From: a plasmid
NCBI RefSeq assembly: GCF_055900595.2
Contig: NZ_JBVWEU010000002.1
Direction: 5' to 3' (one strand)
Length of the DNA: 64,000 bases
Shown here: piece after piece, positions 29,769 to 54,357 of the stretch
How positions within the stretch are numbered: position 1 is the first letter of the stretch
Layout: the number at the start of each line of letters is the position of its first letter
Position numbers and translations under genes: made by a program
The notes under the pieces: generated by a model
Told to the model about the DNA's origin: nothing
Database searches by the model: none
The model's input: only the letters and a program-made list of their open reading frames with translations

Positions 29769-31189
29769 ATACCTTATTTAATCAGCCTTTGAAGGTCGTG
29801 AACGCGGGGCTACACAGTTTTGCTGACAATATTCAACATGCAGGAGGGCATGCTATATCCCTCAACTGGCAGCCGCCAGCACAAGGTGATATTGACACCG
29901 GTTTGGTTCTGGCGTCATTACTACGCCATCCACTGGTAGAAAGTGCCAACCAAATCGCCATGACACGTTATCTCGAAGCACAGCCCGTGTTGGTGGATGT
30001 CATGCTCGCTAAAGAAGCCATCCCCGAAATGGCTGAACAAAAACGCATTTTACACTCTGGTCCACCGATTGCCTGGGAAGATATGTGTGGTCCGGTAAAA
30101 GGGGCGATTATTGGTGCCATGCTGTACGAAGGCTGGGCTACAAGCCAGAAAGACGCAGAAAACCAGATAAACGCAGGCGAAATCGACCTTGCTCCTTGTC
30201 ATCATTATCACGCGGTTGGACCAATGGCAGGCATTATCAGCCCGTCGATGCCATTATGGGTGGTGGAAAACAAAACCAACGGCCATCGTACTTTTAGCAA
30301 TTTCAATGAGGGTCTGGGTAAGGTTCTCCGTTTTGGTGCCAATAACGATGAAGTTCTCAATCGTCTGGCCTGGATGCGTGATGAACTGGCGCCGGCCATG
30401 AAAGCAGCAATCGCACAACACGGCGAGCTGGAACTCAAGCCATTAATGGCGCAGGCGCTGCATATGGGGGATGAAGTTCATAACCGCAATGCTGCCGCTA
30501 CCGGTTTGCTGATTAAGCGCCTGCTCCCGGCATTGCTGGCCTGCTCTCTTCCACAGGAACATATCCAGCGCGTCGTGGCATTTATCACAGGTAACGATCA
30601 CTTCTTCCTCAATTTGTCGATGGCTGCCTGTAAAGCAATGATGGATGCCGCCGCCAATGTACCGTTCAGTTCAATGGTTACGGTGATGGCGCGTAACGGG
30701 GTGAATTTTGGTATTCGGCTTTCCGGTACTGGCGATCGCTGGTTTCAGGCTCCTGCCAATGCAGTTGAAGGTCTGTTCTTCCCCGGATTTGGCGTTGACG
30801 ACGCCGCTTCTGACCTGGGTGATAGCGCAATTACTGAAACCGCAGGTGTGGGTGGCTTCGCGATGGCGTCATCTCCGGCGATTGTTAAATTTGTGGGAGG
30901 CACCCCTGCCGATGCCACCAATAACAGCCGTCGGATGCAGGCAATCACCCTCGGCGGTAACCCCGCATTTACACTTCCAGCCCTCAATTTTGCCCCCACC
31001 GCAGCAGGTATTGATGCGTGTAAAGTGACCGATCGTGGCATTTTACCGGTCATCAATACGGGTATCGCCCACAAACAAGCGGGAGTCGGACAAATTGGTG
31101 CCGGGATCACCACTGCACCGATGGCCTGTTTTGTCGCTGCTGTACGTGAACTGGCGGAGATCGTCGCAAAGGAGAACCATCATGGTTAA
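29765..31189 (+). CDS. DUF1116-family protein (YlbE/YahG-like)
   Basis: Start ATG overlaps the upstream stop; paralog of 45459-46877 (LFNQPL..VN.G, HSGPPI.WE.MCG, GDSAITET.GVGGFAMA). Confidence 0.65.
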   Translation: MNTLFNQPLKVVNAGLHSFADNIQHAGGHAISLNWQPPAQGDIDTGLVLASLLRHPLVESANQIAMTRYLEAQPVLVDVMLAKEAIPEMAEQKRILHSGPPIAWEDMCGPVKGAIIGAMLYEGWATSQKDAENQINAGEIDLAPCHHYHAVGPMAGIISPSMPLWVVENKTNGHRTFSNFNEGLGKVLRFGANNDEVLNRLAWMRDELAPAMKAAIAQHGELELKPLMAQALHMGDEVHNRNAAATGLLIKRLLPALLACSLPQEHIQRVVAFITGNDHFFLNLSMAACKAMMDAAANVPFSSMVTVMARNGVNFGIRLSGTGDRWFQAPANAVEGLFFPGFGVDDAASDLGDSAITETAGVGGFAMASSPAIVKFVGGTPADATNNSRRMQAITLGGNPAFTLPALNFAPTAAGIDACKVTDRGILPVINTGIAHKQAGVGQIGAGITTAPMACFVAAVRELAEIVAKENHHG

Positions 31190-37969: not shown

Positions 37970-38248
37970 TCAAGCGCCCCCCTGGATGAGCGTGATGATT
38001 ACTGGCGGACCTTTGACGTTCCAGCAAATTCCCCTGTTCCACATAGGTTTCCAGATATGACCGGTTATTTTCACGTTCGGTGTACGTGTTACAGCTGCAT
38101 TATCAATATCATCAGGGATAAAATTGTAAGATCGTGGAAAATGTTTATTCATAGCCCGGATGATGGCTGTCTGTGCATCCTTTGTTCGGGCGCGGTGTTT
38201 CCATTCACGCCAGCCATCCACCTCAGAAATAATAACAGTAATCATCAA
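37970..38248 (-). CDS. Hypothetical protein
   Basis: 92-aa ORF between the Tn3-IR pair and the FinO-domain gene; no recognisable motif. Confidence 0.2.
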   Translation of the reverse strand: MMITVIISEVDGWREWKHRARTKDAQTAIIRAMNKHFPRSYNFIPDDIDNAAVTRTPNVKITGHIWKPMWNRGICWNVKGPPVIITLIQGGA

Positions 38249-49529: not shown

Positions 49530-50626
49530 ATTAAGGAAAGCGACCGCCGCCGTGAATTTTTAATGTTCATTGCAGATTATCGTGGGCTGGAAATGATAAC
49601 GGTTGGGGAGTTATTGTTTAGTTGCTAAAACAGAACGATAACCAACCCCAACCGTTCTCAATTTCGAATACTATCTTTTCCATTTATCTCTGGATAGGCT
49701 TTGACGTCGTCCCTACTGAGTAAAATCCCCCTCATCATCCACCTAAAACCGATTGAAAACGGTCATTACTCTTGTGGCAAACAGGCTAAAGCCGTTCACG
49801 ATGCTTCACTTCGCACCTTATCGTAATGAACAATACTGGTATTTCCAGTTCAGTTACGCCTACCCGTCTACCGCATTCTTTGCCCTAACTACGGCATAGT
49901 TCGGGATTATATCAGCTGGCTAAAGCCTTATGCTCATCAGACCACATGACTCATTGAGCATGTTGAGGCGTTACTCAAAATCTTGCCGATTAAACATATT
50001 TCGTAATTTCTTACCCTGCACTAGCATATCATCAATACTATCGACAAACGTCAGTTGCAAATAGAGGTCACAGGGTCTGATTGATGTACTGCCAAGGCCG
50101 GGTCATGAAAGAGTTTGCCCTGTTCAAAGCTCATCGTTACGCACCGTCGTAGCCGATGCGGATACTCATCAATCCTCTGGATAGGTGAGGTGCGTAGTAG
50201 AGAAGCTCGGTCGTTTTTCGTTAATCTGAATCAGTACTGTCAACATATTCAAGTCGTTAATATGGATATGAATACCTCCTTTGACCTAGAGGTACAGATG
50301 CACTACCCCCCAAGCTGTCAACGACGGATGAAAAGTGGCTCTTCCGCAACCTGGATGGAGATTTTCATGCCAGTGGACTCATGACCCTCTGCCTGAGTAG
50401 TTCAAATCCGGCTCGACCATACATCTGGCCTTTCAGCATTTTTAGCCAATTTACATGACTTTCGACACCCCCCATTATTCCAGCGACTGCTGATTGCCTC
50501 ACATATAGCCGCAGCATCAGCTGCCATCCTTGCAGCCACGCGCCGAAGTTACCACTTTCTCGTTGCTCTTTTAACCACTCCCTCCATGGGTCCAGAAGTC
50601 CTCACTCTGGAGGCCGGGTTGACATT

Positions 50627-51439
50627 TCAGGGAATGTTCCTGAACACACCCAGAGACTGTCTGTCACACGTGATAAGCCTGTAATACGGGATAAGCCTGT
50701 AATACGGGATATTTCCCCTGAACCCACATCCCTTGTTATGTAGTGCCATAACCTCTGTCCAACGCTGATGCCGTTTTTGGCGGGTTTGCTGTTTAAGGCG
50801 TTCCGGACGACGGAGCGATGCTACAGGCACAGACAGTACTGGCTTAGGTGATTTCTTTGGTGACAACCCACTGGCAACAAGACGTATCAGAGGCATCTGT
50901 CTGTACATCATTCGTTCAGGCGCATCGCCAATATTTTTTAGCCGGTGCCATCGAGCTGCTATCTGTCTGGCCTGAGGTGCACCTTCACGTGATGCTGTCG
51001 CATAGACTCCGCCACGGTCACATGAGACAACCTGTATTTCCGGATATTTTCTGAACCAGGTCGCCAGCGTACTCTGCTCGCAACCGGGAAGCAGGACGAG
51101 GGGACGGTGAGTATAAAGATTGACGATTAACGTACCGTAATGGTAGCCCCGATGCCACGCCCACTCATCAATACCGACATGAGGCGCGCCTGACTGTTTC
51201 GTCTCCGGGGTATTAATAACCCTGCGAAGAAGAGTATCAGCACTGCAACGGAGCCCCACTGCCGTTGCTGCCTGTTTCCCGGCCTCACCTCCGGCTATTA
51301 ATCCCAGTTGATGTTGTAAATTTTGTAACACCTGTGAAGAATGCTGGGAGTGAACCGGCGAAGGGGGCAAGCGACCCGGCAAAAATTTTACGTGAACAAG
51401 CCGGGTTACGGCAGTACCAGTGGCGGACGGAAAATACAA
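50627..51439 (-). pseudogene. ISL3-family transposase fragment (N-terminus missing), with an in-frame tandem duplication near the C-terminus
   Basis: ...GIDEWAWHRGYHYGTLIVNLYTHRPLVLLPGCEQSTLATWFRKYPEIQVVSCDRGGVYA...; NIPYYRLIPYYRL from a direct 18-bp duplication; upstream end cut near the IS1 left end. Confidence 0.45.
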
Positions 51440-51685
51440 GCCATAGCGTCTGCCCTGAGCAGGGTAGATGCTGTATCCGGCGCCGACGATAACTATGAAC
51501 AGAGTCGCTACGCTTAAAGCATTCAGGACTTGTGCTGTTTTGCGTTTTCCGTGGAGATGGAGGGTTATACCGTCAGAGCTAATAATTTGTCGACTGCATC
51601 TCCATCCGCAAGGTAACTGTAGAAGTGTCTGGTGATGCTGCCAACTTACTGATTTAGTGTATGATGGTGTTTTTGAGGTGCTCCA

Positions 51686-53992
<2,307 letters not shown>

Positions 53993-54357
53993 CTAAATCG
54001 CGCCAGCGCTGGCTGTTTTACGCGTATGACAGTCTCCGGAAGACGGTTGTTGCGCACGTATTCGGTGAACGCACTATGGCGACGCTGGGGCGTCTTATGA
54101 GCCTGCTGTCACCCTTTGACGTGGTGATATGGATGACGGATGGCTGGCCGCTGTATGAATCCCGCCTGAAGGGAAAGCTGCACGTAATCAGCAAGCGATA
54201 TACGCAGCGAATTGAGCGGCATAACCTGAATCTGAGGCAGCACCTGGCACGGCTGGGACGGAAGTCGCTGTCGTTTTCAAAATCGGTGGAGCTGCATGAC
54301 AAAGTCATCGGGCATTATCTGAACATAAAACACTATCAATAAGTTGGAGTCATTACC

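Follow-up and report, generated by a model that had tools for sequence, protein, structure and literature searches.

In the 64-kb stretch of plasmid DNA analysed here (the window, 64,000 nucleotides), a pseudogene of an ISEc38-like ISL3-family transposase carries an exact 18-bp tandem duplication. Over 10 kb the region shows 99.8% identity to E. coli plasmids of the ColV/IncF type, whose sources include poultry, humans and other hosts, and its annotated neighbours are ets, eit, ompT-like, RepFII and tra genes. The features of the locus are as follows.

about 49770-50315, plus strand: second, older and heavily decayed ISL3-family fragment (transpos_ISL3, E 2.5e-13)
50316-50336, plus strand: IS100-type tip of 21 nt, TGTCAACGACGGATGAAAAGT, abutting the ISL3 inverted repeat tip
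50337-51630, minus strand: remnant (pseudogene) of an ISEc38-like ISL3 element, located by alignment and tblastn, with PGAP annotation at the same place in sister plasmids
50337-50351, end of the minus-strand element: right inverted repeat tip, GGCTCTTCCGCAACC
about 50365-50367, minus strand: stop codon of the ancestral reading frame
near 50469, minus strand: +1 insertion relative to ISEc38
50548/50549, minus strand: junction of a 349-bp internal deletion that removes roughly transposase residues 367-480
50604: stop codon created by a private substitution, in this window only
50675-50710, minus strand: exact tandem duplication, 2 x 18 bp, in the ISEc38-like transposase pseudogene
50715-50719, minus strand: +1 in a run of C, also in copies that have no duplication
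near 51350, minus strand: +1 insertion relative to ISEc38
51346-51530, minus strand: N-terminal segment with the zinc-ribbon region in a shifted frame, between the -1 and the +1
51529/51530, minus strand: -1 deletion relative to ISEc38
51631-52038, plus strand: 5' part of an IS1, left inverted repeat GGTGATGCTGCC..., cutting the ISL3 remnant
52039-53992, minus strand: IS100 (IS21 family, istA/istB, 1954 bp), inserted into the IS1
53993-54357, plus strand: 3' part of the same IS1

An earlier note on this DNA had recognised an ISL3-family transposase remnant at 50627-51439. The family assignment is borne out by Pfam and NCBIfam matches and by the alignment with ISEc38, but the remnant itself is longer, ending on one side at its inverted repeat tip (50337) and on the other at 51630, immediately before the IS1 left end (51631). 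The catalytic domain DDE_Tnp_ISL3 (PF01610) is matched by the window open reading frame (E 2e-12) and by the intact relative (E 7e-35). The second ISL3-type domain, Zn_ribbon_ISL3 (PF14690), is present in ISEc38, and the window encodes the corresponding segment, CPECFKRSDSVHS...CRNPACSRKIF, in a shifted frame. As for the GGCTCTT-like ends of ISL3 elements, the right inverted repeat is in place and the left one is gone at the IS1 junction. No direct repeat that could represent an 8-bp target-site duplication is found around the remnant, one end of which is missing. Variants (isoforms) of one IS are by ISfinder convention those with roughly 90% or higher DNA identity. Over 1257 aligned nucleotides the remnant shares 93.0% identity with ISEc38, where the reference is the element encoding WP_001596155.1, and this high identity along the element places it among the ISEc38 variants. 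The intact relative (L002), annotated as "ISL3-like element ISEc38 family transposase" (539 aa), and the 1722-bp chromosomal copy of E. coli 536 (L004) were both reached via less similar matches. In sister plasmids, PGAP labels the same locus 'ISL3 family transposase, frameshifted', so that the pseudogene is already part of public annotation.

Both borders of the remnant are junctions with other mobile DNA. At the border with the higher coordinates, the IS1 is split by IS100, whose 5-bp target duplication CTAAA is found at 52034-52038 and 53993-53997. The flanks of the IS1 itself show no matching 9-bp target duplication. The missing left end of the ISL3 element was sought beyond IS1 and elsewhere in the window and was not found, and we rejected the idea that it had been displaced beyond IS1. 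Since the IS1 has no matching target duplication, the left end appears to have been deleted rather than displaced, which suggests that an IS1-associated deletion removed it. Compared with ISEc38, the loss comprises the left inverted repeat, the leader and codons 1-8. In other words, the N-terminus, which the earlier note had taken as lost near IS1, is largely still there: apart from about eight codons and the element end, residues 9-313 of the transposase remain encoded in the window, interrupted by one -1 and one +1 frameshift. At the opposite border, the older ISL3 fragment, which PGAP annotates as 'transposase, frameshifted, incomplete', stops exactly where the IS100-type 21-mer starts (50315/50316).

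The largest lesion of the remnant, the 349-bp deletion, did not figure in the earlier note. The deletion, the +1 in the C run near 50715 and the +1 near 50469 are common to the copies in plasmids pMTY1886_IncF (L003) and pAPEC3701 (L006) and on the chromosome of E. coli SMS-3-5 (L005), none of which has the duplication. Because these copies carry the three lesions without the duplication, the deletion and the two frameshifts are the older events. The transposase gene was therefore dead by the time that the 18-bp duplication arose.

These lesions also determine how the duplication reads in protein. The 270-aa open reading frame on the minus strand at 50627-51439 is present and includes IPYYRLIPYYRL. 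It scores 139.7 bits (E 1e-40) against NCBIfam transpos_ISL3, under the full-length cutoff of 180 bits, as a fragment should. This frame is a chance opening across at least two frameshifts: its first and last 30 or so residues are outside the ancestral frame, and the transpos_ISL3 match begins at residue 31, in agreement with an out-of-frame start. In the direction of the gene, the +1 C near 50715 comes shortly before the repeat, so IPYYRLIPYYRL is an out-of-frame translation. The protein repeat reported in the earlier note can thus be found in the open reading frame, but its IPYYRL unit is not the native one. The native frame across the repeat reads EISRITGLSRITGLSRVT (ORF 50602-50727; tblastn segment 315-366), and in it the 18-bp repeat is an in-frame duplication of SRITGL within a helix-turn-helix. 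The corresponding part of ISEc38 (residues 293-338) gives helix-turn-helix matches to Pfam HTH_7, HTH_38 and similar models.

At the nucleotide level, the 64-kb window holds two exact occurrences of the unit AAGCCTGTAATACGGGAT and no more, head to tail at 50675-50692 and 50693-50710, with no sequence between the copies, and the 18-bp direct duplication described earlier is confirmed as it stood. No match of this kind is expected by chance, and none was seen in 100 dinucleotide-preserving shuffles. Tandem Repeats Finder, run over 50300-51700, returned one array only (period 18, 2.4 copies, 96% matches, 50668-50711). The exact period-18 tract spans 50672-50711. Since GATA is found at both boundaries of the 18-bp unit, the phase in which the duplication is written is arbitrary.

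A single 18-bp unit is found in intact ISEc38 (L002), in the chromosomal copies of E. coli 536 (L004) and SMS-3-5 (L005), in the further copies L010-L013, and in pMTY1886_IncF and pAPEC3701, where the IS1::IS100 context is the same as in the window. Alignment with intact homologues, which the earlier note had proposed as a check, thus gives a clear outcome, the 539-aa ISEc38 transposase and several remnants all having one copy. A 400-bp probe over the site, made without the duplication, matches 82 records from complete E. coli genomes at 99% identity or more, most of them chromosomal. The same probe finds 105 records in the 95-99% band, as expected for the duplicated form; the number of duplicated copies (about 105-125 records) is accordingly one taken from identity bands and not alignment by alignment. 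Across the repeat, the alignment with the window is free of gaps for at least 30 plasmid assemblies, and the duplicated form is also present in one K. pneumoniae plasmid. These comparisons show that the 18-bp duplication is derived and lineage-specific.

The SMS-3-5 copy (3266793-3267977 of that chromosome) is a deleted remnant adjoining shiF-iucABC. It is nearly identical to the plasmid copy until about 51300 and then continues as a much more divergent ISEc38-like variant, which retains its own left end. Because the sequence type switches at about 51300, this copy is a mosaic.

It is also worth pointing out that the window has peculiarities of its own. Its sequence departs from that of every other duplicated copy at 14 positions, which lie between 50448 and 51507 and cluster in the pseudogene (50604-51145, plus 50448, 51134, 51191 and 51507). 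Ten of the 14 (10-11) are private to the window, seven of the ten being transversions, and the private change at 50604 makes a stop codon. A search of 5,426 E. coli genomes and 72,556 plasmids gave no record above 98.1% identity for 50590-51160. The idea that a chromosomal ISEc38-like copy had donated the private changes by gene conversion was considered and rejected, as 10 of the 14 differences match no copy examined. The private substitutions could be either a sequence error in the source record or a real local change. In the 24 kb around the remnant, only seven other positions differ from plasmid pR2-2. At 30877-31149, within a carbamate kinase (arcC) gene, there are 15 substitutions in 273 bp relative to pR2-2; they resemble a recombination tract, for which the window's two paralogous fdrA-ylbE-carbamate kinase clusters may have been the partners. 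At position 38096 the window is without the 15-bp TGCAAATAATACAGG that pR2-2 has.

How did the duplication arise? The unduplicated sequence, GTGATAAGCCTGTAATACGGGATATTT, has GATA repeated 18 nt apart (L003, L005, L006), and the stretch is already imperfectly periodic (repeat family D3, 83%). Functional ISEc38 has GCGACAGG where the dead lineage has GTGATAAG, the first GATA being GACA in ISEc38. It follows from this comparison that the GATA microhomology predates the duplication and was made by three transitions in the dead lineage. Exact head-to-tail copies missing from ancestral-type sequences, with a short direct repeat bounding the unit, are what slippage should leave. We therefore consider it very probable that the ISEc38-like remnant was dead first and then acquired, in one plasmid lineage, a neutral 18-bp slippage duplication. 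The 349-bp deletion and single-base frameshifts had already inactivated the transposase gene; later, during replication, a nascent strand ending in GATA would have re-paired with the identical GATA 18 nt upstream, and the 18-nt interval would have been copied again; finally, drift or hitch-hiking would have fixed the duplication in one plasmid lineage, which later spread widely. The core of the earlier reading, slippage within decaying IS DNA, is upheld, and the GATA microhomology fits it. Slipped-strand mispairing is the mechanism that we infer from the sequence, and some other microhomology-mediated route to a duplication is an alternative that sequence alone cannot separate from it. Because the gene was already broken, the duplication was presumably neutral, with no functional consequence.

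The only alternative of some weight is that the plasmid lineage had the duplication from the start and that the copies without it have lost one unit by repeat collapse. Tandem repeats collapse easily, and pMTY1886_IncF and pAPEC3701 are otherwise almost identical to the duplicated plasmids. Nonetheless, functional ISEc38, the copy of E. coli 536 type (91% identical) and the majority of the 82 records, which are mainly chromosomal, have a single copy, which makes a single copy the root state, and collapse could account for only about five plasmids without the duplication. We regard this explanation as unlikely. It is far less probable that the 18-bp repeat is a target-site footprint, left behind when a mobile element came in and was subsequently excised. 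The region is indeed saturated with insertion sequences (IS1, IS100 and two ISL3 remnants), but 18 bp fits no target duplication seen here, that of IS100 being 5 bp and that of an ISL3 relative (L017) 8 bp; moreover, the two copies abut, and the GATA microhomology is a prediction of slippage.

Two other explanations are scarcely credible, and we rejected both. A sequencing or assembly artefact of this particular record might be suspected, since the 10-11 private substitutions in the same pseudogene make the local sequence quality questionable. The duplication itself, however, was found without a single base change in at least 30 plasmids of independent assembly and in the K. pneumoniae plasmid. 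Nor is the 12-residue repeat native to the transposase subfamily, as intact ISEc38 and seven further copies show when aligned: one copy is present in the intact 539-aa transposase, in L004, in L005 and in L010-L013, and structurally solved IstA aligns through the region without a repeat. A slippage duplication in an element already dead thus remains the preferred reading.

The helix-turn-helix in which the duplication sits leads to a different question. Residues ~298-400 of the ISEc38 transposase form an IstA-like module inside a split DDE_Tnp_ISL3 domain; the window equivalent is at about 50540-50760 on the minus strand. Over 93 aa the module shares 33% identity with the IstA of IS100 (window 52884-53906; pairwise E 9e-13) and is homologous to IstA residues ~9-107. 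Its only PDB matches are to IS5376 IstA (8B4H, 8Q4D; E 2e-11). In IstA, HTH-1, linker and HTH-2 bind conserved boxes of the IS21 terminal inverted repeats (PMC10122671). The 18-bp duplication falls in HTH-1 of the IstA-like module.

IS21-type sequence is also found immediately outside the element. The 21-mer at 50316-50336 is identical at all 21 positions to the outermost right terminus of IS100 (copy at 52039), a terminus that starts with TGT, the ends of IS100 being defined by the CTAAA target duplication inside IS1. Repeat family D1 is this 21-mer plus one base that matches by accident, and its second occurrence is at 52039. We compared such arms for the window (50316-50351), L002, L004, L005, L009-L013, L015 and L018, with the following results.

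E. coli 536 (L004): IS100 left-type 21 nt / right-type 21 nt
L002 and L018: left-type 46 nt / right-type 20 nt
L010: right-type 21 nt on both sides
L011: right-type 55 nt / left-type 21 nt
K. pneumoniae L009: 56 nt / 21 nt, diverged
K. pneumoniae L013: 21 nt / 21 nt, diverged
Enterobacter L012: an arm on one side only
Agrobacterium L015 (33% aa identity): TGTC-initiated arms of 56 and 45 nt

Nearly every enterobacterial ISEc38-group copy examined is thus bracketed by pieces of IS21-type outer terminal repeats. In every case the arm gives way to ISL3 sequence where the AT-rich spacer ends, directly 5' of the position that the GATCCA box has in IS100. No IS21 interior sequence adjoins any of the copies examined, and no target duplications were seen around the enterobacterial ones. 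The distant Acaryochloris relative (L017) has plain ISL3 ends and an 8-bp target duplication, GATCAGAA. Searches for empty sites with the joined flanks of L010, L013, L011 and L018 returned no record in which the flanks are contiguous. Since every copy lies at a rearrangement junction, target duplication and pre-insertion state are unreadable. An exact-protein look-up of the ISEc38 transposase returned one conserved chromosomal locus only, and hence no independent insertions.

Based on these observations, it is tempting to speculate that the ISEc38 group and its ISL3 relatives of ~520-555 aa are chimeric insertion sequences, in which an ISL3 core has received an IstA HTH-1/linker/HTH-2 module. 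We put this forward tentatively, as a possibility with somewhat less than an even chance of being right. ISEc38-group elements might home into IS21-family ends, replacing the IS21 interior, or they might use composite IS21/ISL3 ends; either is possible. Among the papers that we searched, none dealt with an ISL3/IS21 link, and ISEc38 was met only in mobile-element inventories. The connection between ISEc38 and IS21 is apparently undescribed and may be new. If true, this would be a natural case of domain capture, in which a transposase of the ISL3 family has acquired the end-binding module of IstA and is found consistently between IS21-type termini. The captured module could steer elements of one insertion-sequence family towards the ends of a different one. 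This is the only part of the analysis that might repay more work, and it is relevant to the mobile-DNA field. The 18-bp duplication is an ordinary scar, and the pseudogene that bears it already has a RefSeq annotation in many ColV-type plasmids. Presence or absence of the duplication is at most a convenient lineage marker for ColV-type virulence plasmids.

Among known systems, ISEc38 is the closest to the remnant. The window copy shares with it the inverted repeat tip and the gene order, and its zinc ribbon, split DDE_Tnp_ISL3 domain and internal helix-turn-helix module can still be made out. What sets the window copy apart, besides the 349-bp deletion and the 18-bp duplication, is the absence of the left inverted repeat and eight codons, together with four single-base indels and a private stop codon; it cannot encode a transposase. 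The pseudogene of RefSeq ColV-type plasmids (such as p1540-4 and pR2-2) agrees with the window in locus, flanks, lesions and the duplication, and the window departs from it at the 14 positions described above. With classical slipped-strand mispairing duplications, the window case has in common the exact head-to-tail copy, the 4-bp direct repeat at the ancestral unit boundaries and a site in non-functional sequence, and it is otherwise undistinctive. As to the IS21 family, the module that contains the duplicated segment is homologous to HTH-1, linker and HTH-2 of IstA. In ISEc38, however, the module lies within an ISL3-type DDE domain, whereas that of IstA stands at the N-terminus of an rve-type protein, and ISEc38, unlike IS21-family elements, encodes no IstB partner.
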